A DNA stretch of 64,000 bases from Candidatus Hydrothermarchaeales archaeon. GTDB taxonomy: Archaea; Hydrothermarchaeota; Hydrothermarchaeia; Hydrothermarchaeales; JAZGAD01. Within the stretch, counting starts at the first letter, position 1, and each line of letters starts with the position of its first letter. A program made the position numbers and the translations under genes. Under the pieces are notes generated by a model, which was not told the DNA's origin, ran no database searches, and worked only from the letters and a program-made list of their open reading frames with translations. Positions 15,225-27,815 of this stretch are shown in pieces. Where the stretch lies: assembly GCA_036444275.1 (NCBI GenBank), contig JAZGAD010000012.1:36464-100463 (forward strand), written 5' to 3'.

Positions 15225-17126
15225 TCACCATACGTGCTTTACATGAGGGAATTCGTCCACCATGTGTGGGAAGTGCATAGCCTGTATGAACTCTGTCTGA
15301 AAATCTGGATCAACGGTGAGCTCTATGTAATGTATCCTCCTAGCCAGATCATTGGCTTCTTCCCTCTTTTTCTTGTTTATGAGGGCTATCCTTGCTCCAT
15401 CGCCAGCTGCATTCCCAACGGCAAGGACATTTTTCAAGTCACAGTCCGGGTATAAGCCGATTACCATTGCAGCTTCCTTGTCGATATAGTTCCCAAAGGC
15501 GCCAGCTAGGAGCACTTTGTCGACTTTGTCAGTGCCGTAATGCTTCATCAGAATCTTGGAGCCAGCGTACATAGCACCCTTACCAAGTTGAATAGCTCTT
15601 ACATCGCCGAGGGTTATGCTTATCTCCTTCCCGGTAGCACTCTCCTTCTTACCGACTAGCACGAATTCTGGCCCCTCTTTACCCTTCTTGAGCCTCGGTG
15701 TATCTATCTCAGTATTGAAGGTTCCATTCTTCCTTATAATCCCAGCCTTAAACATCTCTGCTACTCCATCTATTATACCAGAACCGCATATTCCACGAGG
15801 CTTCACAATGTCTTCGTCGTCTCCTAGGACTTTGAATTGCACCTCATAGTCGGGGTTTATCGTCAAGTGCTCTATGGCTCCTGGAGCCGCGCGCATCCCA
15901 TGCTTTATATGTGCACCTTCAAAAGCCGGACCAGTTGCACAGGAAGTGGACAGCAATTTATCCTTGTTTCCAAGGACGATCTCGCCATTGGTGCCTATAT
16001 CTATAGTTAAGACTACTTTGGACTGCTTATACGGCTCGGTAGCTATAAGGACACCCACATTGTCAGCGCCTACGAAGCCTGCCTCTATCGGGAGCATGTG
16101 GACATTAGCTCCTCTTCCAATCCCTAGTCCCAGTTCTCTGGCTTTGAGGTCGTAGGAATGATGTATCACGGGTGGAAAAGGCGACAGACCAACGAACTCT
16201 GGGTTGAGTCTGAGGAATATGTGGTGCATCGCAGTGTTGCCCACGACAGTCATCTCTAAGATATCTTCCTGGGATATGCCTATTGCTCCTGCTGTGTTTG
16301 CCGCTATCTTATTCAGTCCTTCTATGATAGCAGAGTGCATCTTCTCTAAGCCATCGTCGTGGGTCATGGCATACGTAATACGGGACATGACATCTTCACC
16401 AAAGGCTACTTGGGGATTCATCATGGAATCCAGCGCAACTACCTCGCCTGTGTTGATATCGGTAAGATAACCCGCCACAGTGGTTGTGCCGATATCTACA
16501 GCTAGCCCATAGCTCTTTTCCACAAGCCCCGGCTGAACCGCTATTATCTTATCGCCCCAGGTAGTGACGGTAACCTTCCATTCGCCTTTCCTCAGTACAC
16601 TTGGGAGCGCCTTCAAAATATCGTAGTCTACGTTCAGCTTCTCTAGTCCATGTACCTTTTCGAGCTCCCTCGTCAGGCGCTCTAGATCACCTGTAGGATC
16701 ATCGAGTTTTGCAGGCTCTAATTCCACATAGTACTTCCGTATCACTGGATCGATGTCTATCACTATCTTTCTAGCCCCTTTCCTTACTATCTGCTTACCC
16801 CCCCGGCTCTCCTCAGGGACAAAGAGGAGGATATCGCCAATAACCTTCGCGGCACAGGAAAGCCTATAATTAGACGCGATTTCTTCTGCTTTCAGCTTCT
16901 TTTTTTCCCCTTCCTCAAGCTTAGATAGATTAGCCGACCTAGAGTCTATGCCGTATTTCTCGAAAAAGCCCTCTTGAATCACGATCTTGCATTTGCCGCA
17001 GGTTTGTTTGCCCCCGCAGATGGATTCTATCTCAACACCCAGCTCATGGGCCGCATCTCTGATACTCGTCCCTTCTTCCACCAAGCCTCTTCTTCCAGAG
17101 GGCTGGAATATCACAGTATACTCCAT
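15225..17126 (-). CDS. ASKHA-fold reductive activator of corrinoid proteins (RACo/DUF4445) with N-terminal [2Fe-2S] domain
   Basis: CGGKQTCGKC...RLSC ferredoxin; DIGTTTV, GEDVMSRI, DIGTNGE, CATGPAFEG, GICGSG and LAGAFG motifs. Confidence 0.93.
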   Translation of the reverse strand: MEYTVIFQPSGRRGLVEEGTSIRDAAHELGVEIESICGGKQTCGKCKIVIQEGFFEKYGIDSRSANLSKLEEGEKKKLKAEEIASNYRLSCAAKVIGDILLFVPEESRGGKQIVRKGARKIVIDIDPVIRKYYVELEPAKLDDPTGDLERLTRELEKVHGLEKLNVDYDILKALPSVLRKGEWKVTVTTWGDKIIAVQPGLVEKSYGLAVDIGTTTVAGYLTDINTGEVVALDSMMNPQVAFGEDVMSRITYAMTHDDGLEKMHSAIIEGLNKIAANTAGAIGISQEDILEMTVVGNTAMHHIFLRLNPEFVGLSPFPPVIHHSYDLKARELGLGIGRGANVHMLPIEAGFVGADNVGVLIATEPYKQSKVVLTIDIGTNGEIVLGNKDKLLSTSCATGPAFEGAHIKHGMRAAPGAIEHLTINPDYEVQFKVLGDDEDIVKPRGICGSGIIDGVAEMFKAGIIRKNGTFNTEIDTPRLKKGKEGPEFVLVGKKESATGKEISITLGDVRAIQLGKGAMYAGSKILMKHYGTDKVDKVLLAGAFGNYIDKEAAMVIGLYPDCDLKNVLAVGNAAGDGARIALINKKKREEANDLARRIHYIELTVDPDFQTEFIQAMHFPHMVDEFPHVKHVW

Positions 17127-17211
17127 ACATTCTTCTTTAGCTTACCTTATTAAAGTTTTAATCCCCTATTTCAAAGCTAATTTTAAGTTTAAATCAGGAT
17201 ATTAAAACAAG

Positions 17212-17366
17212 TGCGGACTTGATCCGGGCAGAAAGTCTCGATAACCCAAACCGAAGTTCAAGTTAGCGGTTCTTTCGTACAAATCCTTACTCCGAAGAGT
17301 AACTGATTTGCCGTCCCATCCCTTATCATTGACAAGAAGATGTTCACAACTCGATCCAAATCCGCA
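17212..17366 (-). ncRNA. Unclassified structured non-coding RNA (~155 nt)
   Basis: Paired ends (UGCGGAUUUGGAUC/GAUCAAGUCCGCA), two C(UUCG)G-capped hairpins, G-U pairs only on the minus strand, TATA box ~30 nt upstream, U-rich tail. Confidence 0.8.
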
Positions 17367-17388: not shown

Positions 17389-17401
17389 ATTTATAATTTT
17401 C
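17389..17401 (-). promoter_or_regulatory. BRE/TATA promoter for the ncRNA
   Basis: Minus strand GAAAA-TTATAAAT; the first T lies 30 nt from the first paired base of the RNA. Confidence 0.65.
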
Positions 17402-17446: not shown

Positions 17447-19039
17447 TTATTGGAGTGCAACTTTTCTCTCCTTAAGTCTTTCATCTACGTCGCTACCGAG
17501 CATGCAAGGCGGTCTAGGAATCTTGACAAAGAGCGGGACGTCGAAGAGCTCATAGTCCACCAATTTATCCCCTTTTCCAAACCTCCTAATTTTGCCCTTG
17601 ATCTCCTCTGAGAACTTCTTGTAGAGGAGGTCTCCAAGTTCAGCTCCCTTGGTCTTGCCATAGATGTCTGTAGAGACATTTCCTATGATGTTCTGATTCA
17701 CCCTCGACTTGAATTGTTCAGCTCCAAACAAGGCCATTCCAATGCTCCTGCCCCTAGCGCTTATATCTACCAATCTAGCCTTGAGGGAGGCAACATCAGG
17801 CGATGCGTGAGCCGGTGCATACTTGTTTAATTCGTCCATGAATATTATTAGTTTGTCCACCCTGAGCTTCTTGGCTTCTAAGCGCCCTATGAATTCAGTG
17901 ATCACCTTCTCGAAGACCAGCTTCCTCGGATAGAAACCGAGTTGTTGTATATCCACAACCCACACTTCTCTATCCTCCAAGTCATCGTAAGGCAGCTCCA
18001 GCACCTCGTCGGCATAGCTTGTTATCAGGCCGCCGTACTTGGATTCCAGTCCCTTGAGTTGGTTGTAGAGTTTTCCCCAAGTGGCTTTGTAGCTGCCTTT
18101 GACTAGCTCTGTCCACGCCCTGTCGTCTGATAGGAGTTCTTCCCGCATAAAGTTCAGGATCTGGGAGAAAGAAGTTAGTCTCCTGTCTTTGGACATCCTC
18201 TTCAAGTCATAAAAAGCTGTATCCAGCTTCTCCTTCTGGTCCTGGTCTCCAGCTTTCAGCAGTGATGGAATGAAGTCTTCTACTTCTAAGTAGCCCCATC
18301 TGAAGGGTTCTACCTGCTTTCGCAACGACCTTGCCCCAGATAATATGTCTAGAGGGGCGAAGAATCTAGCTTTAAAGGCATTCGGTTCTATCCCACAGTT
18401 ACTGTATACCTCCAGGTCCTCTATTGTAAGCCTCGATGAATCCATATCCACGTATAACAGGTCATCGCTCTTTATATTGAATAAAATACATGCCACTTTG
18501 GATTTCGAGTGGGTGAAGATAGAGCTCAGAAGGAACAGTACAGTTGAGGTCTTCGTGCCGAGGCCAGACATCCCTGAGATGTTGATATGTGCCCCTTCAT
18601 ATCCTAAGATGTAGTTCTCGTCTATACGCACCGGTATTCTAGCTCCATCGGTGTTGATGAATACACCAACAGGGATATCACATCCCTCTAGGTTGAAGAG
18701 TTCTTCTAGTTCCTTTTTTGAGGGATAATAGACCTTTCCATGCCTTAGAGGCCTGTCCAGGTCCTGCTTCAGTACCCTTGCTTTGCATACTATGACCGAC
18801 TGCTCCTCGTTAGGAATCTTGAGTGCTGGATCGCCTCCTCTGGAGAGTTGATGCATCAGGAAGTCCTCTACCTCTGAGTAGCTCTCCATAGCCTCAATAG
18901 CTCCGTAAACTTGTTTACCGTCAGCATCCACCCTAACTACAGAGCCTACCGCTACAGTATCCTCCTCATTGGGAATCCAGAAATGAAACTCCTCAGGCGT
19001 ATTCGGCCTGTTCTTGGTTCCAACTACTGTCCCGATCAT
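17447..19039 (-). CDS. herA: HerA-family ATPase/helicase (bacterial Deinococcus/cyanobacterial-like subtype)
   Basis: N-terminal HAS barrel, atypical Walker A HINISGMSGLGTKTS, Walker B IFMDELNKYAP, RGRSIG.ALFGAEQ. Confidence 0.85.
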   Translation of the reverse strand: MIGTVVGTKNRPNTPEEFHFWIPNEEDTVAVGSVVRVDADGKQVYGAIEAMESYSEVEDFLMHQLSRGGDPALKIPNEEQSVIVCKARVLKQDLDRPLRHGKVYYPSKKELEELFNLEGCDIPVGVFINTDGARIPVRIDENYILGYEGAHINISGMSGLGTKTSTVLFLLSSIFTHSKSKVACILFNIKSDDLLYVDMDSSRLTIEDLEVYSNCGIEPNAFKARFFAPLDILSGARSLRKQVEPFRWGYLEVEDFIPSLLKAGDQDQKEKLDTAFYDLKRMSKDRRLTSFSQILNFMREELLSDDRAWTELVKGSYKATWGKLYNQLKGLESKYGGLITSYADEVLELPYDDLEDREVWVVDIQQLGFYPRKLVFEKVITEFIGRLEAKKLRVDKLIIFMDELNKYAPAHASPDVASLKARLVDISARGRSIGMALFGAEQFKSRVNQNIIGNVSTDIYGKTKGAELGDLLYKKFSEEIKGKIRRFGKGDKLVDYELFDVPLFVKIPRPPCMLGSDVDERLKERKVALQ

Positions 19040-19048
19040 GGTATCGCC

Positions 19049-20065
19049 TCAGATAGCTCGAAGGGTCGCCTTCAAGTGCCGAATGGATGGGATCTGGGTT
19101 CGCAGGTAGTCCTCGCAGATTTGAATCGGGTATATTTGCCTGTCCCACCTAGAGCAGTTGGCGCGTATGCACTTCTCAGCTATCAGCCAAGAAGAGAATT
19201 TGTCAGCCGAGATCGTTGGTCCAGTATATTCAACCCTCAAGAGCCCCATTTCAGGATAATGGGGCGCATGAATCCGCAGGTAGAAAGAATTCACCTTGTA
19301 TCTAGGGGTACCTTCCCTCAGTTGCATGGAGAAGACCATGCTCCGGTAGTACTCGGGCATGCTCCATACCATCTGTTGGATCTCGGGGTACGCCTCTTGG
19401 AGATATATTGTAGCATGCGTCTTTATCACGCCCACTACCTGTTCTGTCTTCATAGAGCCGAAGATATTGCCATCTTTAATGAGCACGTCCCCCCTAGGCT
19501 GTTCAGCGATGAACCTGTGCATCAGGTCATGCTCTATTTCCTGTCGCAGCGCCCTTGACTTTATCATAGCCTTGCTCCTGATTTCGTTGAGGTCCCAGCA
19601 TTTATCAGCTCCTGTATCAGCTAGACCCTCGATGTCTCCCCATGCCTCGTAGAGAAAGCTTGGTACTAAGATCTTGTTCCTGTAGAGAGCTTTTAGGGGT
19701 GCGAATTTATCGCAGTGCCTTCTATGCATTATCACTGCGCCTGAGAAATGGAGGAAAATAGGCACCTTGAATCCATTGAAGTCGTAGTGCTTCCAGAGCA
19801 CGGTCCTCTGCACGCCGTCCATGAAGTAACTGAGCTTGCTCTCACCGCGGTATCCATCTTGTACCCTGTGTACGCCTGGGATCTCTAGAGGCTGGACCTC
19901 TATATTCTCAGGTAGATGCAGGCTACTGGGGAATTCTTGCAACTCTAGCTCCATAAACACAGTAGGGCTAAGACTGTCAGAGGTGGCTCTTTCGAATTCC
20001 CTAGCGCTCTCAAACCAATCCATCCTTCTTTCCATGAACCATAACCCTTTTGCCGATGGTATCAT
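19049..20065 (-). CDS. NurA-like nuclease (RNase H fold)
   Basis: YFMDGVQRT, LIKDG, VGVIKTH, SFYLRI, GLLRVE and YPIQICEDYLR motifs; 9 nt upstream of herA. Confidence 0.75.
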   Translation of the reverse strand: MIPSAKGLWFMERRMDWFESAREFERATSDSLSPTVFMELELQEFPSSLHLPENIEVQPLEIPGVHRVQDGYRGESKLSYFMDGVQRTVLWKHYDFNGFKVPIFLHFSGAVIMHRRHCDKFAPLKALYRNKILVPSFLYEAWGDIEGLADTGADKCWDLNEIRSKAMIKSRALRQEIEHDLMHRFIAEQPRGDVLIKDGNIFGSMKTEQVVGVIKTHATIYLQEAYPEIQQMVWSMPEYYRSMVFSMQLREGTPRYKVNSFYLRIHAPHYPEMGLLRVEYTGPTISADKFSSWLIAEKCIRANCSRWDRQIYPIQICEDYLRTQIPSIRHLKATLRAI

Positions 20066-20540
20066 TAAACTTGTCCTAGGGCGGCTGAAAAGTGAAAAGT
20101 AATAAACATGAACGATAAAAATAGAAAAACATGGGCTTTTCGACCGAAATAAACGGAATCAATATCCAAAATAAACGAACCTTGAGGGGTAATAAGAGTG
20201 GTTGTAAAATTATATATTGCTCTAAATAGCATGTATACTAGACGTTGAGACTCATGAAAAATCCTTCAATCCAATATACTTCTCAAATCCGAAATAAGTT
20301 GCAAATAGAAATCCCTTATTCAAGGATTATCGGGGGAGTATAGAATGAGAAATATAATCCACTTGGGATCGATACAACCCCTGAGGAGGTTCAATGGCTG
20401 CTTGTTCAGCGGTGAGGATGTTCCGGAGCTGGATGTCTCCCTTAACACTGACAACTATCCTACCCAAGAGTTCTCTGTAGCCAGACCTATGTATCAAAAG
20501 GGACCCGTGCCGACCATAAAGTTAGTTGGGGAGTAGAAAC

Positions 20541-23500
20541 ATGGAGTTTAGATATAGTGTAGCCTTCGTCATCTTGATTCCCACCCTCATATTTGGTCTC
20601 ATGTATTATGCCTCTCTGCCTCCAGGGGTTCAGGGTGATGTGGGTCGTGCTGTTGAGCGTCCTATTATATTGGAGGCTGCTGTTGAGCCTTTCAAGGTTC
20701 TCCCGGGAGACACTATGTTGGTCACGGCAGAAGTGGCTGATGATGTAGGAATAGCGGGTGTGATGGCTGATATGGGTGGTATTGAGTCTATTGATCTCGT
20801 TTTGGTTAATGGCACGATTCATCGGGGTGTTTGGCGGGGTGAGTGGTTTGTGCATGATACCGAGGTCAGGGAGTATAATGCGACTATCACGGCGGTAAAC
20901 ATCCTGGGAGAAAGCACTTCTCAAAACGTCGCCTGGTCCGACCCCATTGAGAACCTTTCTGCAACTGTAGAAACTCTCTACGTGCTCACCTCCCAGATGA
21001 GCATTACGGGATGCACTCTTACAACCGAGAGGGAAAGCCACGGCCCCAGTGATAACATCTCTGCATCGGTTGATGGAAAATGGGTTTCAGCCGGCTGCAG
21101 GTGGGAGTTTGAGATGGATAATGCAACGCTGACCGACAACACCTTTGTCAGTGCAAATATAACCATAAGGCATTATGCATCCTCGGGGTACGACAATGAT
21201 ATAGCATTACTGCAGTACTCGATGGACGGTGGTCTGAACTGGGATATTCTGGAGACGTTTAATTCCTCGAATCCCATTCCCTTAACACCCATCACGAAGA
21301 CCTATGCCGCTCCCCTGATAACTTCCTGGGAGCATGTAAGCAATACTATAGTCCGCCTAGTTGCTGAGGAGAAGACGGGCGGCGTTGACACTTGGACATG
21401 GTATGTTGATTTCATAAAGCTCGATGTCAACTTTAGTCAGACCGCCCCTCTTGCCAAGAGAGTCTTCCATGTTCACGACGGCCAGGTGAGCAGCAATCTT
21501 ACATCCGGTAGCGGGAAAGGGCATGCCCGCTCAGCCATAATAGTCTGGAATCGCAACGACACAAGTATGAGCTTCACGAACATCAGCGATACCTACAGAG
21601 ACCCCATCATCAACTCCCTTAACGGCTCCAGTCCACTAGGTGCTACCCTCTCCGGCAACAAGACAGTGGCATGGGCATCTCAGAGCATCTCTGCAAAGAA
21701 TCTCAGCGTCTTTTCTTACTACTGGTACCGCACAACGACCAGTTACCCCGGCGGGAATGTAACCACCAACGCGACCGATGATGAGGGAAGCGGTAAAAGG
21801 ATTTATGGAGATATAAATACCTCAGCTGGTCCTGCAGCAAACATAATCACGCAAATCCAGGACAATATATCTATGAGATGGGACTATGGGGTGTGGAATG
21901 TCATCCAGAACAAAACCAGGAACTTTTCCATACGCCTTGCTACGTGGCAGTGCTCGGCATCACTGAGTACCAGCACTACCCCTGTGCTCTGGGTCAGGGT
22001 TCCCGGGGGATGGAGCAACGTAAGTGGCGCAGGCTGGACGATCTTCGGAAGCGTCGACGAAGGCTGGACATTGAGCAGGAGGGATATGCCTGATGCCTTT
22101 AACGATACTAGCTGTGGCAACGGTGCCTACTCAACGGATTGGAATTTCACCGCAACCTCTCCCTCAGTATCTGAAGCCACCCCCTACGTATTTGACACAA
22201 GGCTTGACTACACTGACAGCAATAGCAGGATTCACCATACAGTTGGGGAGCACCTCGTCCAAGTTGTCATAGATGCTGAGAAGCCTACGTTTGACGGTAA
22301 TACGGCTATAAACACTACTGTTGCGGGTAGTGGTGGTGTGGTGAAGCTTAATGAGACCGTCAACGACAACGTGGGGGTTGAGAGTGTCTGGTTTACGGTG
22401 AACGGCACCAATTATACCTTCAACGGCTCCTCTGGCAATGAGTACTATTTGCTGTGGACTTGCAGCGCCAATGAAAATTATTCTTGGAGTGCGATATATG
22501 CCAAGGATTACGCGGACAACTTCAACAGCGCTACGGTTGACCCGGCTTTGAATTGGACCTGCGACTTAACACCGCCCACCGTGGCAAATACCAGTGTCGA
22601 CCTGACCAGTGTCCCCCGTGATACCCTGATTTGTGTGAATCACACCGCCAACGATACCTGGGGTAGTTTGAATGAGACTTGGGTCATGATCACCTATCCG
22701 GGTGCTGAGAATACTTCGAACTTCACTACCAGCGACACGGGCCCGTACTGTGCTGGTGAGGCTGACGACGGCTGGTACGGCACAGAGATCAACGTGGGCA
22801 ACACGCCGGGCAATTTGACTGTAAATACGTCTTACGCCAACGACACCGTGGCCAACCTCGGATTCCAAACTCCATTTCCAAACCTAACCGTGGAGGTAAT
22901 CGGCGTCATGGTGCCCTCTATTAGAGTCTACAGGGAGCAACCCACCTACGTTGGACCAGACAAGAATATGAGCATCAGATTCTTCATCTGGAACGATTTA
23001 AATGCGACGCGCGGCACTGACAGCACGACCCTCATAGAAGACTACGACGATGCTTGGAGTGGTATTGACCCCTGCTGCGGGGGCACTGACAACGGAACGC
23101 ACGTCATCTGGAACTTGGGTTCTTTGGGTATAGACGACGTGACCACCGTCTACTACAACATTACTGCTAACACAGAGCAAGGGACCTTCTCGGCATATAC
23201 GAATTACACTTACGGTGTTAACTGGAACGAGACTACGCCGGACTCCTACAACACCAGCGTCTCCAGCGGCGGTGCATACTTCGATGCGGAGCTTGACTTG
23301 ATAGCTGGAGGTATGTTGGATAGGACTATTTCGAATGGCACCAACTACACCGCGAGAATCACCCTCAAGAACATAGGAAATGCTTCCACCGACTACTATA
23401 TGGTTCAGTACTACTGGATATTCAATAAGTCCGGCTGGAATGTCTCTGTCCTCTCAGGTTGCGATCAGTCTAAAGTATTCGACTACAACTCTAGCCATAA

Positions 23501-26500
23501 GGCTCTGGAATGCAACATCACTTCCCGCATCAACCCCGGGGAAAGCGTATCCTTCACATTCAACGTGAACTCTACCGCACTGGGTCACACCGAGGCAGTG
23601 ATATCAAATGCTACATACGATCCACCCGTGGCCTCTGAGGCTTCGGTGGGAGAACCTTCGCTTGATCATGGAGATATGAAAATCAAGGTTGTCTCCACAG
23701 GGTTAGAGATTGATGGAGGGAGGGGCAAGCCGTTTAATTCCGTATTCATACTCCTGCTGGCCGTCTTCTTACTCTTCAGTGTAACCTTAGGGATTATCGA
23801 TAGAGGGGATGCAGAGTTTAGCTATGGCGTTGTTTTCGCTATCTTGGTCCCTACTATTGTCTTTGGTTTTATGTACTATTCCTTGGATTCGGGGGTTCAG
23901 GGTGAGGTCGGTCGTGCTGTTGAGCGTCCTATTATAGTGGAGGCTGGTGTTGAGCCTGTCAAGGTTCTCCCAGGAGATACTATGTTGGTTACGGCGGAAG
24001 TGATTGATGATGTAGGAATAGCGGGTGTGACGGCTGATATGGGGGGAATTGAGTCTATTGTTCTCGCTTTGGTTAATGGCACGATTAATCGGGGTGTTTG
24101 GCGGGGTGAGTGGCTTGTGCATGATACTGAGGTTAGGGGGTATAATGCGACTATCACGGCGGTAAACATCTTGGGAGAAAGCACTTCTCAAAACGTCGCC
24201 TGGTTAGATACACCTGACCCCCCGGAGGTCTTCCACATCCATGATAACTACTTCGACAATGACGTTAATCCACCAAGGGGGGGTGGCGCTGGCAATGGAT
24301 TTTTCAGGGTCATCATCCTCCTCTGGAACAACAACTCAGGAAGCACCACTTACACAAACATCAATGACACCTACACTTACCCCACCAGAGACCTCATCGA
24401 TGCTCTGGTAAACTCTTCGCCCACCGCGCAACGCATCCCAAGCAGTGTCTACTGGACGAGCCAGCAGTATACCGTATCTGCTAAAAACTTCAGCCTTTTC
24501 AGATATGACTGGCAAATGAAGAGAAGGCCGGAACCGAGCGCCGAATCTATAGAGGCGAGTGCCACTGACAACGGCGGCGAATCGACCACGGTGTCTTACG
24601 GAAACATAATTGCTCCAGGTGGTCCTGCAGCGTATATTATAACCCAGATCAACGGTAGTGAACAAGGATTCGGATACGGGGTGTGGGACGTGATGGGAGG
24701 CAGCTCCAGGGATTACTCAATAAGATTGGAATCGCCAGTATGCACGTCAGCGTTGGATACCAGTGCATGCACTCCTGACCTGACGGTGAGGATCCCCGGC
24801 GTCTGGAACATAACAGATTGGCCGGGATGGGCAAAGACCGGAAGTGAGATTAATGGCTGGACCCTGACTAGGACGGACATGCCGAATGGCTTCAACGACT
24901 CGGTCTGCGGCTCGCCATCACAGTATTCCACCGACTCAGGCTTGGGTTGGACACCAACGGATTGGAGTTTTACGGCGATTGCACCTTCTCCCCCCACTAC
25001 CAGCAGATACGTCTTCAATACGACCCTGCAATATTGCGATGACCAAACTCAAACCCACGACACTGTTGGGGAACACCTCGTCCAGGTTGCTCCGGATACC
25101 GAGGCGCCTAGTTTTGGCAACCAGGCCGGTGTTAATGCTACTATTGCTGGTAGTAATAAGGTGGTGAAGCTTAACGAGAGCGTCAGCGACAACGTGGGGG
25201 TTGAGAGTGTCTTGTTCACGGTGAACGATTACAATTATACATTCAACGGCTCCTCGGGCAGTGAGTTTTATTTGTTGTGGACCTGTAGCGCCAATGAAAA
25301 TTACTCTTGGAGTGCGATTTATGCTATTGATAGCTCGAACAACTTGAATGGTTCCATATCTGGTTTGCCTTTGAATTGGACTTGTGACGTGACAGCGCCT
25401 AGTGTGGGGAATACGAGTGTCGACCTGACCAATGCCTTCGCTGGTACTGTGGTGTGTGTGAATCATACTGCTAGTGATATTGGGGGTAGTTTGAATGAGA
25501 CTTGGGTCATGATCACCTACCCAAATGGCGATACTTCAAACCGCAACACTAATGATACTGGTGTGTGGTGTGCTGGTGAAGCTGATGATGGCTGGTACGG
25601 CAAGGAGATCAATGTTGGTGGTTCGGAGGGTAATTTGACTGTGAATACGTCTTACGCCAACGACACCGCGGGTAACTTGGGGGTCCAAACTCCCTTCCCA
25701 AACCTAACCATAGAGGTAGTGGGGGATGCTGAGGCGCCTACGTTTGGCAACGATCCGGGTAGGAATGCTACTATTGTTGGTAATGGTAGTGTGGTAAAGC
25801 TTAATGAGACCGTCAACGACACTGGGGTGGGGGTAGACATTGTCTTGTTCACGGTGAACGGCACCAACTACACCTACACGAACTCCTCTGGTGATGAGTT
25901 TTATTTGCTGTGGACTTGCAACGATAATAGCAACTATTCTTGGAGTGCGATTTATGCTAATGATAGTGCTGGTAACTTGAATGGTTCCATATCTGGCTTG
26001 CCTTTGAATTGGACGTGTGACGTGACACCGCCTACCGTGGGGAATACGAGTGTAAACGCGACCAGTGTACTTGCCGACAGTGTGGTGTGTGTGAATCATA
26101 CTGCTAGTGATATTGGGGGTGTTTTGAATGAGACTTGGGTCATGATCACTGATCAAAATGGCGATACTTCGAACGTCCTTACTAATGATACTGGTGTGTG
26201 GTGTGCTGGTGGGGTTGGTGATGGCTGGTACGGCGAGGAGATCAATGTTGGTGGTTCGGAGGGTAATTTGACTGTGAATACGTCGTATGCTAATGATAGT
26301 GCGGGTAACTTGGGGGTCGATCCCGCCTTCCCGAACTTAACTGTAGAGGTAACGGTCGAGGAGGATAATGAGGCGCCTACGTTTGGCAACGTGACCGGTG
26401 TTAACGTCACCATCGCTGGTAGTGGTGGTGTGGTTAAGCTTAACGAAACTGTCAGCGACAACGTGGGGGTAAACGTCACCTTGTTCACGGTGAATGGCTT

Positions 26501-27815
26501 CAATTATACTGCCAACAGCTCCGATGGCGAGAAATATTTGCTCTGGAACTGCAACGATAATGCAACTTACTCTTGGACTGTTATATACGCCAATGATAGT
26601 GAGGGCAACGCGAATAGTTCCACGTCTGGTTTACCTTTGAATTGGACCTGCGACTTAACACCGCCTACCGTGGGGAATACAAGTATCAACGTGACCAGTG
26701 TACTTGCTGGTTCTGTGATTTGTGTGAATCATACTGCCAATGATACGTGGGGTGTTTTGAATGAGACTTGGGTCATGATCACCTATCCAGATGGCTCAGT
26801 CGACAACGTGAGCACCAACGACACGGGTGTGAGCTGTGCTGACACTGCTGACGACAACTGGTACGGCGCAGAGATCAACGTGGGCAACACGCCGGGCAAC
26901 CTTACTGTGAATACGTCTTACGCCAACGACACAGCGGGTAACTTGGGTGTCCAAATACCCTCCCCAAACAAAACCGTGACGGTAATCGATAACCAGATCC
27001 CATGGTACACCGCTGACTCGGACAATTCCAACGGCTTAGTGACCAACGATACCATGGTGAACGTCTCGGTCTATTGGCAGGACGCTGGGGGGCTGGATAC
27101 AGCCATCCTCAGGACAAATGAGAGCGGGACCTGGAAAAATATCAGCAGTGTAAACCTGAGCGGAACTGATGCCTGGGCGAACTTCACCATAAACACTTCC
27201 AACGCTACGGGCAATACCACTTGCTGGAATCAGTACGCCAACGACAACTCTAACAACCTGAACACGAGCATGCTCACCACTGAGCACTGCTTCTACGTAG
27301 TTAATGCCCCTAAGGGCTATTATATCTACACCAGTGAGAACTTCTTCGTCAGGGTGCGGTATCGGCCACCAACGTGGGGGTCCTACAACGATTCAACTCA
27401 CCAAACCCTTGAGGAGATATTCTACAATGACACTACAGCCCCTGTAGGGGATAGGCATAACGTGTATATGTACGGAGAAAACTATCGGGTCAACACTCAA
27501 TACGAGGTTATATATTATTACCCAGATGGTGACTTGGTAGCTACTCAGTATTCCACCTCGAACGCGGATGGAGAACTCCTGGATGTATTTGACGCCGATG
27601 GTTATGAAGCGGGAATCAATTATACCTCAGCGGTCTGCCTATCAGGTTGCCCAGCTCCTTACAATGTGGATGATTCAGACATCATCGCAGTGGACATTTT
27701 CGAGGTCCAAGATGCATTGGTATTACCGGAATTTGGATATGTATTAATCCCACTTTTGACGTCTGGCGCGGCCTATCTATGGCTGAGGAGGAGGTTTAAG
27801 GGTGAACAAGCTTAG
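20541..27815 (+). CDS. Giant (~2,420 aa) cell-surface glycoprotein with internal duplications and PEF-CTERM sorting signal
   Basis: N-terminal TM, two central TMs, very many NxS/T sequons, repeated beta-rich modules, C-terminal LPEF+TM+RRR; start trimmed to ATG at 20541. Confidence 0.85.
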   Translation: MEFRYSVAFVILIPTLIFGLMYYASLPPGVQGDVGRAVERPIILEAAVEPFKVLPGDTMLVTAEVADDVGIAGVMADMGGIESIDLVLVNGTIHRGVWRGEWFVHDTEVREYNATITAVNILGESTSQNVAWSDPIENLSATVETLYVLTSQMSITGCTLTTERESHGPSDNISASVDGKWVSAGCRWEFEMDNATLTDNTFVSANITIRHYASSGYDNDIALLQYSMDGGLNWDILETFNSSNPIPLTPITKTYAAPLITSWEHVSNTIVRLVAEEKTGGVDTWTWYVDFIKLDVNFSQTAPLAKRVFHVHDGQVSSNLTSGSGKGHARSAIIVWNRNDTSMSFTNISDTYRDPIINSLNGSSPLGATLSGNKTVAWASQSISAKNLSVFSYYWYRTTTSYPGGNVTTNATDDEGSGKRIYGDINTSAGPAANIITQIQDNISMRWDYGVWNVIQNKTRNFSIRLATWQCSASLSTSTTPVLWVRVPGGWSNVSGAGWTIFGSVDEGWTLSRRDMPDAFNDTSCGNGAYSTDWNFTATSPSVSEATPYVFDTRLDYTDSNSRIHHTVGEHLVQVVIDAEKPTFDGNTAINTTVAGSGGVVKLNETVNDNVGVESVWFTVNGTNYTFNGSSGNEYYLLWTCSANENYSWSAIYAKDYADNFNSATVDPALNWTCDLTPPTVANTSVDLTSVPRDTLICVNHTANDTWGSLNETWVMITYPGAENTSNFTTSDTGPYCAGEADDGWYGTEINVGNTPGNLTVNTSYANDTVANLGFQTPFPNLTVEVIGVMVPSIRVYREQPTYVGPDKNMSIRFFIWNDLNATRGTDSTTLIEDYDDAWSGIDPCCGGTDNGTHVIWNLGSLGIDDVTTVYYNITANTEQGTFSAYTNYTYGVNWNETTPDSYNTSVSSGGAYFDAELDLIAGGMLDRTISNGTNYTARITLKNIGNASTDYYMVQYYWIFNKSGWNVSVLSGCDQSKVFDYNSSHKALECNITSRINPGESVSFTFNVNSTALGHTEAVISNATYDPPVASEASVGEPSLDHGDMKIKVVSTGLEIDGGRGKPFNSVFILLLAVFLLFSVTLGIIDRGDAEFSYGVVFAILVPTIVFGFMYYSLDSGVQGEVGRAVERPIIVEAGVEPVKVLPGDTMLVTAEVIDDVGIAGVTADMGGIESIVLALVNGTINRGVWRGEWLVHDTEVRGYNATITAVNILGESTSQNVAWLDTPDPPEVFHIHDNYFDNDVNPPRGGGAGNGFFRVIILLWNNNSGSTTYTNINDTYTYPTRDLIDALVNSSPTAQRIPSSVYWTSQQYTVSAKNFSLFRYDWQMKRRPEPSAESIEASATDNGGESTTVSYGNIIAPGGPAAYIITQINGSEQGFGYGVWDVMGGSSRDYSIRLESPVCTSALDTSACTPDLTVRIPGVWNITDWPGWAKTGSEINGWTLTRTDMPNGFNDSVCGSPSQYSTDSGLGWTPTDWSFTAIAPSPPTTSRYVFNTTLQYCDDQTQTHDTVGEHLVQVAPDTEAPSFGNQAGVNATIAGSNKVVKLNESVSDNVGVESVLFTVNDYNYTFNGSSGSEFYLLWTCSANENYSWSAIYAIDSSNNLNGSISGLPLNWTCDVTAPSVGNTSVDLTNAFAGTVVCVNHTASDIGGSLNETWVMITYPNGDTSNRNTNDTGVWCAGEADDGWYGKEINVGGSEGNLTVNTSYANDTAGNLGVQTPFPNLTIEVVGDAEAPTFGNDPGRNATIVGNGSVVKLNETVNDTGVGVDIVLFTVNGTNYTYTNSSGDEFYLLWTCNDNSNYSWSAIYANDSAGNLNGSISGLPLNWTCDVTPPTVGNTSVNATSVLADSVVCVNHTASDIGGVLNETWVMITDQNGDTSNVLTNDTGVWCAGGVGDGWYGEEINVGGSEGNLTVNTSYANDSAGNLGVDPAFPNLTVEVTVEEDNEAPTFGNVTGVNVTIAGSGGVVKLNETVSDNVGVNVTLFTVNGFNYTANSSDGEKYLLWNCNDNATYSWTVIYANDSEGNANSSTSGLPLNWTCDLTPPTVGNTSINVTSVLAGSVICVNHTANDTWGVLNETWVMITYPDGSVDNVSTNDTGVSCADTADDNWYGAEINVGNTPGNLTVNTSYANDTAGNLGVQIPSPNKTVTVIDNQIPWYTADSDNSNGLVTNDTMVNVSVYWQDAGGLDTAILRTNESGTWKNISSVNLSGTDAWANFTINTSNATGNTTCWNQYANDNSNNLNTSMLTTEHCFYVVNAPKGYYIYTSENFFVRVRYRPPTWGSYNDSTHQTLEEIFYNDTTAPVGDRHNVYMYGENYRVNTQYEVIYYYPDGDLVATQYSTSNADGELLDVFDADGYEAGINYTSAVCLSGCPAPYNVDDSDIIAVDIFEVQDALVLPEFGYVLIPLLTSGAAYLWLRRRFKGEQA
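20544..24203 (+). repeat. Duplicated N-terminal module (20544-20936 and 23814-24203)
   Basis: Near-identical DNA and protein (GRAVERPII.EA.VEP.KVLPGDTMLVTAEV.DDVGIAGV...STSQNVAW). Confidence 0.9.
22272..26990 (+). repeat. Four ~210-aa Cys-containing repeats (approx. 22272, 25095, 25725, 26367)
   Basis: Recurring VVKLNE.V.DN.GV, LLW.C, LNWTCD.T.P.V.NTS, LNETWVMIT and NLTVNTSYAND motifs. Confidence 0.9.

Follow-up and report, generated by a model that had tools for sequence, protein, structure and literature searches.

A previously undescribed family of small structured RNAs, with a fold kept by compensatory mutation, in one uncultured archaeal order

The window analysed here is a stretch of 64,000 nucleotides from a Candidatus Hydrothermarchaeales archaeon (GenBank assembly GCA_036444275.1, contig JAZGAD010000012.1, positions 36,464 to 100,463 of the forward strand), and coordinates refer to the window unless another contig is named. 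A structured RNA of about 155 nt, counted from its first to its last paired base, lies on the minus strand at 17212-17366. The gene downstream on the same strand encodes RACo (15225-17126, ATG at 17126), in which Pfam recognised four RACo/Fer2 domains, and the next ORF after it was assigned to MtrH by Pfam. The closest relative of this RACo is encoded by a genome of the same family, G001 (71% identity), followed by proteins of Anaerolineae/Chloroflexota (57-63%) and then of Bathyarchaeia (45-49%). The bacterial relatives are closer than those of Bathyarchaeia, which suggests that the corrinoid-activation genes were horizontally transferred. Two minus-strand ORFs upstream of the RNA had been named as a NurA-HerA pair in the first-pass annotation, a naming that has almost no support from Pfam. 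The ORF of 530 aa (17450-19039) is weakly HerA-like, with a HAS-barrel match at E 3.3e-4, below the cut-off, and only generic ATPase clusters in a protein atlas search; the ORF of 338 aa (19052-20065) had no Pfam match. A 2,429-aa ORF on the plus strand (20526-27815) starts about 460 nt past the NurA-like ORF.

Read on the minus strand, the RNA consists of a closing helix that encloses three arms. The closing helix is formed by UGCGGAUUUGGAUC (17366-17353) and GAUCAAGUCCGCA (17224-17212). The family alignment and its covariation favour a register with an 11-bp P1, one mismatch, and a 6-bp P2 (UCGAGU/GCCCGG). The 5' strands then occupy 17349-17366 (P1 17366-17356, P2 17354-17349) and the 3' strands 17212-17229 (P2 17229-17224, P1 17222-17212). 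The elements of the first-pass annotation are all present, with one slight difference in the closing helix, where the inner GAUC/GAUC extension drawn there gives way to this register. Arm 1 (17317-17342) reads CAUCUUCUUGUC-AAU-GAUAAGGGAUG, and its apical GUC...GAU is kept in most family members. Arm 2 (17279-17311) carries a C(UUCG)G loop. Arm 3 (17231-17276) has a GAAAG/CUUUC base, an A-rich internal loop, an upper stem, and a second C(UUCG)G loop, and its 3' strand continues into P2 without a linker.

The minus strand of the window's copy had a minimum free energy of -57.4 kcal/mol (z = -4.23), which none of 200 shuffled sequences equalled, and the minimum-energy structure reproduced the closing helix, the three arms, and the two C(UUCG)G loops described earlier from the sequence. 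The plus strand folded less well (-37.2 kcal/mol, z = -2.26; 4 of 200 shuffles were as good), which agrees with helices that rely on G-U pairs available on one strand only. At the DNA level, the locus had no reported inverted repeat. The strand-asymmetric folding and the compensatory changes in homologues described below support the earlier claim of selection at the RNA level. The window's copy is a structured RNA gene with a fold selected at the RNA level.

The gene has a predicted promoter and terminator of its own. A BRE/TATA box, GAAAATTATAAAT (GAAAA followed by TTATAAAT), was read at 17389-17401 on the minus strand, and the TATA box begins 30 nt upstream of the first paired base. In 16 of the 25 family members described below, a TATA-like octamer starts between -27 and -32, as judged by a crude consensus score. 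After the last paired base, a C and the U-run UUGUUUU (17210-17204) form a likely archaeal oligo-U terminator at 17204-17211. A U-rich stretch was present no more than 12 nt past P1 in all 25 aligned members, and the flank began with C in 22 of them. The U-run after the window's copy would terminate transcription; the transcript ends and the expression of the gene are likewise predicted from sequence. Of 6 sequencing runs listed as containing this DNA, none is an RNA run. A TATA-like box of RACo, AAAACTTTAATA, was found at 17148-17159 on the minus strand, about 25 nt ahead of the RACo ATG. The promoter 30 nt before the first pair, the U-run after the last, and the separate TATA box of RACo had all been proposed in the first-pass annotation and were all read again here.

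Rfam 15 (4,227 families) was searched at gathering scores and at E ≤ 10 with permissive filters. Over the whole window, the gathering scores gave only four tRNAs, all away from the RNA, and the permissive search gave no match on it. At the RNA position in 19 homologous loci, no Rfam match was obtained at E ≤ 5, and ARAGORN found no tRNA at the window's copy. This is in line with the earlier impression that the RNA belongs to no recognised family. RNase P RNA (201.4 bits), SRP RNA (209 bits), and 5S rRNA (85.7 bits) were all found on other contigs, well above the cut-offs. The RNA is therefore no disguised version of them, and an identity as RNase P, SRP, 5S, or tRNA was rejected. A four-helix junction closed by paired termini is cloverleaf-like, but the loops of this RNA are UUCG caps, and ARAGORN and the Rfam tRNA model find nothing. 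Hairpins with internal loops also recall H/ACA RNAs. However, no C/D boxes, no ACA after any arm, and no K-turn were recognised by eye when the 25-member alignment was compared with the consensus motifs, and no Rfam snoRNA model matched, so a C/D or H/ACA guide was rejected. No other known protein-binding motif was recognised by eye. A MITE or other dispersed repeat was rejected as well: BLAST finds the locus alone in its genome, covariance models find two diverged copies, and no DNA-level repeats were reported at the locus. No description of this RNA was found in the part of the literature that was searched.

Among 40 relatives, BLAST found a single homologue, in G001 (71% identity). The G001 homologue has the same fold (z = -7.9), and the two RNAs differ by 7 compensatory changes among 39 pairs. 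Three covariance models were built, R1 from these two RNAs, R2 from four sequences, and R3 from 25 sequences. R1 gave 4 places, including one in G012 and another, G000:C9, which is a diverged second copy in the genome of the window that BLAST had missed. R2 gave 25 full-length places across the order. R3 gave 28 full-length forward-strand places in 23 of the phylum's 38 genomes, one or two in each of the 23, and two reverse-strand echoes of two forward places. The window's copy matched the models over its full length, with 160.9 bits for R2 and 126.2 bits for R3.

The 38 genomes belong to one class, 35 to the window's order and 3 to other orders. All R3 matches fell in the window's order (23 of 35 genomes), in families f1, f2, f4, f5, f6, f9, and f10. 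The RNA was not found in the other 12 genomes of the order, which comprise families f3, f7, and f8 (5 genomes) and genus g12. It was also not found in the 3 genomes of the phylum's other orders, in 151 genomes sampled from another archaeal phylum, or in 3 further archaea. The misses within the order may reflect model sensitivity or incomplete assemblies. These gaps in its distribution within the order leave a core housekeeping role unsupported. The data indicate that this is a previously undescribed family of small structured RNAs, approximately 155-175 nt long, across one uncultured archaeal order, and the newness applies to the RNA family.

Two archaeal RNAs are useful for comparison. sscA/sRk33 of Thermococcales is described as a lineage-restricted small RNA of function not known, whose basal stem covaries and whose fold is conserved (PMC3124441, PMC4247193). 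The RNA studied here is likewise small, archaeal, and lineage-restricted, with a covarying basal stem and a conserved fold. According to the same reports, sscA is contained in the 118-nt 5'-UTR of the aEF1-alpha gene and is laid out as P1/P2 hairpins (PMC3124441, PMC4247193), whereas our RNA is free-standing, about 155-175 nt long, and built around a four-way junction; neither the sequences nor the models pointed to a similarity between the two. HgcC is also an archaeal non-coding RNA first found in computational screens, as ours was, and its transcripts are tied to IS1341-type transposase (tnpB) genes (PMC4615843). In contrast, no transposase stands beside our RNA, and the Rfam HgcC model had no match.

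The fold was examined in the 25-member alignment. An alignment by MAFFT of the trimmed sequences misplaced arm 3 and was set aside. The alignment used was fitted to the model structure and therefore favours that structure; in it, 90.5% of 1,289 cells were standard pairs, compared with 34-45% when the partners were slid by 1-3 columns. Double changes were present in 48 of 54 pairs, and none of 500 shuffles reached any of five measures. Compensatory changes occurred in all nine helices. Pairs with double changes numbered 9 of 11 in P1 (97.1% of cells paired), 5 of 6 in P2 (92.1% of cells paired), 9 of 11 in arm 1 (helix 4), 8 of 9 in arm 2 (helices 5-6), and 14 of 14 in arm 3 (helices 7-9). A crude all-against-all column scan for pseudoknots or extra pairs gave G/U-type noise and no clear covariation signal. 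These results show that compensatory mutation has maintained the fold in the seven families of the order that carry the RNA.

Sequence conservation was low overall and had distinct foci. These were the ends of P1 (UGCG.. / ..CGCAC), the inner P2 pairs, the base of arm 3 (GARAG / YUC) with its A-rich internal loop, the short strand between arms 1 and 2, and the UUCG-type caps. The strands of the junction are short, and neither their length nor their sequence is constant; unpaired stretches measure 0-7 nt and are poorly conserved. A few junction nucleotides are semi-conserved, such as CGA between arms 1 and 2 in 8 of 25 members.

The 25 RNAs gave a short, weakly resolved tree. The window's copy and its G001 orthologue (G001:C52) paired on a long branch, and the second copies of the two genomes (G000:C9 and G001:C185) paired with each other. 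These pairings point to two RNA lineages in family f1. The window's copy is a diverged paralogue from a faster-evolving duplicate lineage, which occurs in both genera of f1 next to RACo. Family f9 likewise has two copies per genome.

The genomic context of the family genes was then compared. According to mechanical ORF calls at 25 loci, the downstream ORF was convergent at 12, on the same strand within 200 nt at 8, and cut by a contig edge at 5, so that the gene that follows is convergent at 12 of the 20 informative loci. The neighbouring ORFs formed lineage-local synteny groups and nothing wider. Pfam identified among the neighbours topoisomerase VI A, BioY, a BirA-like protein, an arginine-dihydrolase-like enzyme, a methyltransferase, a ParA-like ATPase, an RPA-like OB protein, DUF4416, radical SAM, arginase, a transporter, THUMP, a metallo-beta-lactamase fold, diphthamide synthase, JAB, and flavin reductase. 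5S rRNA or tRNA genes lie about 1.3 kb or nearer to the RNA gene at two family loci. At one (L008, G012:C68, 199-769), a 5S rRNA gene stands with two tRNA matches of 126 and 137 nt, probably intron-containing, and at the other (L034) three tRNA genes lie about 1 kb upstream. The unrelated contexts indicate that the RNA is free-standing, as had been proposed from its own predicted promoter and U-run, and is no leader of a neighbour.

Two roles had been suggested for the RNA in the first-pass annotation, a riboswitch or sRNA for the corrinoid-methyltransferase operon and an RNA partner of the upstream NurA-HerA pair. Neither RACo/mtrH nor herA/nurA tracks with the RNA across the family. Among family members, only the window's copy and its G001 orthologue adjoin RACo. 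In a search with R2, the RNA was present at 1 of 80 RACo loci from public genomes, and that locus is apparently G001 again. It was not found at the closest RACo homologues after G001, which are bacterial (Anaerolineae, 63% identity). Upstream of the G001 orthologue lies a different neighbour, a 120-aa ORF encoded on the opposite strand, and a NurA-HerA neighbour was seen at none of the other copies. Given the differing neighbours, the convergent genes, and the RACo count, both suggestions are unsupported. A riboswitch or cis leader was also rejected for the family as a whole: a same-strand ORF follows within 200 nt at 8 of 20 loci only, and the downstream genes are unrelated.

We believe that the RNA acts in trans as a stably folded molecule, in which the rod and the junction bind protein and the arms are structural spacers; we put the probability of this reading at about one half. 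The long terminal rod of P1 and P2 opens into a four-way junction bearing the three hairpin arms. Because arm 3 joins P2 without a linker, P1, P2, and arm 3 probably form one coaxial rod, and arms 1 and 2 may be stacked alongside it. The conserved parts (the P1 ends, inner P2, the arm 3 base with its A-rich loop, and the strand between arms 1 and 2) would form the protein-contact surface. The arm tips would be inert UUCG-type caps, with sequence free to drift. The RNA would thus serve as the scaffold of a ribonucleoprotein. This reading rests on two features: sequence conservation is confined to P1, P2, the arm 3 base, and the junction while the arms covary, and the loops are UUCG-type caps rather than conserved single strands.

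Most copies carry, abutting the BRE/TATA box upstream, a conserved block of approximately 50 nt that is more conserved than the RNA itself; the window's copy and its orthologue lack it. The block contains an ORB-like (Orc1/Cdc6 box) element, which marks the copies of ancestral type. At 13 of 25 loci, [C/T]TCCA-N2-3-GG stands on the gene's strand at -63, -73, or -82 from P1 and is followed by GGAAG-N3-AGGT. An example lies outside the window at 1430-1500 of L031, the locus of the second copy (G000:C9). The core of this element equals the Pyrococcus mini-ORB, TTCCAGTGGAA, with its conserved TTCC and GAA (PMC1904270). The main-cdc6 spacers of five genomes of the order contain clear TTCCA-NN-GGAAG sites followed by a G-rich run. 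When scored with a weight matrix built only from 16 cdc6-adjacent sites of these 5 genomes, 14 of the 25 RNA promoters exceeded the 99th percentile set by 1,432 control windows, and all of them did so in one 10-bp register. The scores of the window's copy and of its orthologue were 0.9 and 0.1. Since the family loci are homologues of one another, these counts represent conservation and not independent events.

The RNA gene is unlikely to lie at a replication origin, since no inverted ORB pair was found flanking it and cdc6 is not adjacent; in G005, the RNA gene lies at 275 kb and the cdc6 genes at 483 and 1,872 kb. The element is therefore read as a promoter-proximal candidate binding site of initiator type. 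The same upstream element occurs twice more in the window's genome, at G000:C33:51262-51313 (L126) and G000:C53:16898-16954 (L127). One extra copy precedes a 66-aa ORF followed by the GINS51, L44e, S27e, and eIF2-alpha genes, and the other is flanked by a methyltransferase-like ORF and a Trm112-like gene. The extra copies may mark a putative initiator-protein regulon. Beyond the window, an AT-rich region of about 600 bp without coding sequence (G000:C23, approximately 22660-23300) lies beside the main Orc1/Cdc6 gene and contains at least three ORB-like sites (TTCCA-NN-GGAAG with the G-run). It is likely the replication origin of this genome.

The upstream element raises the alternative that the family is linked to replication or the cell cycle. 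An Orc1/Cdc6 paralogue would directly control the ancestral-type gene, and the RNA would aid the replication machinery or report its state. This alternative, which overlaps with the scaffold reading, is in our view unlikely. It would account for the mini-ORB core at fixed positions and for the matrix result. It is also consistent with the two Orc1/Cdc6 genes in each of the 5 genomes checked, with the element ahead of a small ORF and GINS51, and with the replication genes among the neighbours (RPA-like, topoisomerase VI A). However, the window's copy and its orthologue have no box, the RNA gene does not adjoin cdc6 or carry an inverted ORB pair, and the shared descent of the loci limits what the counts can say. 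The putative site could serve another winged-helix factor, and a regulatory input says little on how the RNA acts. A fuller version, in which an Orc1/Cdc6 paralogue switches the ancestral gene through an ORB fused to the promoter and the product acts with the replication apparatus as a ribonucleoprotein RNA, is slightly less likely still. If it were true, the RNA would be a functional analogue of eukaryotic RNAs that assist origin function, and the window's copy would be a duplicate escaped from control.

The RNA could also be a trans-acting antisense regulator that base-pairs with target mRNAs. A free-standing gene with its own promoter and terminator, present in 1-2 copies, would suit such a regulator, and the 3' oligo-U tail could bind Sm-like proteins. 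But nearly the whole molecule is locked in covarying helices, the unpaired stretches are short and poorly conserved, the UUCG-type loops have 4 nt, and no seed region is visible. We consider this function improbable.

A trans-acting ligand-binding or catalytic RNA with the four-way junction as its active core is slightly less credible again. SAM-I and cobalamin aptamers have a four-way junction closed by P1 with pairwise coaxial stacking. Our RNA shares the P1-closed four-way junction, a size of 100-200 nt, and probable coaxial stacking, has a few semi-conserved junction nucleotides, and in the window stands upstream of corrinoid-related genes. In contrast to these aptamers, it has no Rfam match and no conserved ligand-binding core, its genes at 12 of 20 loci cannot be leaders, and the window's copy is separated from RACo by its own terminator and by the promoter of RACo. 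A known aptamer was rejected, with no Rfam match at E ≤ 10 and with short, variable junction strands. For an aptamer or ribozyme acting in trans, the absence of any Rfam riboswitch or ribozyme match at this threshold, the variation of the junction strands in length and sequence, and a crude scan without clear pseudoknot or tertiary-pair covariation are unfavourable.

For family f1 only, the duplicated copy of the window's type could have become a cis leader, riboswitch, or read-through promoter module of the RACo-MtrH operon. In both known copies of this type, 75-125 nt separate the RNA from the RACo gene that follows it in the same orientation, while their other flanks differ, and their lineage has lost the ORB-like element and evolves fast. 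Against this stand the U-run terminator after the RNA, the TATA-like box of RACo itself, the 79 of 80 RACo loci outside the family without the RNA, and the absence of alternative pairings with the RACo start region. The linkage is also limited to two related genomes, so that inherited synteny explains it. We therefore give this role little credence. The site beside RACo/MtrH is a caution in this respect: it resembled a riboswitch, yet the resemblance reflected local synteny only.

Y RNAs and YrlA, the RNAs of Ro60-Rsr RNPs, have a long terminal helix made of their 5' and 3' ends, an oligo-U tail, and few copies, and vertebrate Y RNAs are linked to replication initiation. The ends of our RNA also form a long terminal helix with an oligo-U tail, and there are few copies per genome, but the part enclosed by the helix is a four-way junction rather than a loop or a tRNA-like element. 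A Y RNA or YrlA was rejected on the basis of the Rfam searches and a search for the TROVE/Ro protein (PF05731), which was found in none of 35 genomes of the order while the positive control matched in 2 genomes. A highly diverged member of a known family, Y-RNA-like or another RNP RNA beyond the reach of the models, is thus very improbable despite the terminal helix and the tail, as Rfam matched neither the window's copy nor the 19 homologous loci, the Ro protein is missing, RNase P, SRP, and 5S RNAs are accounted for, and there is no tRNA.

To our knowledge, the list of conserved structured RNAs from archaea is very short once rRNA, tRNA, RNase P, SRP, and guide RNAs are set aside. The RNA described here bears the marks of a functional RNA: its roughly 160 nt form a complex and heavily covarying fold, the gene has a promoter and a terminator of its own, and it is conserved over seven families. 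Since it has no match among 4,227 Rfam families, it points to a ribonucleoprotein or RNA activity not yet described. If the ORB-like box at the promoter of the ancestral copies were bound by Orc1/Cdc6, this would be a rare instance of a non-coding RNA gene under the control of an initiator protein, and it would connect archaeal replication control with RNA biology in a way that can be tested.
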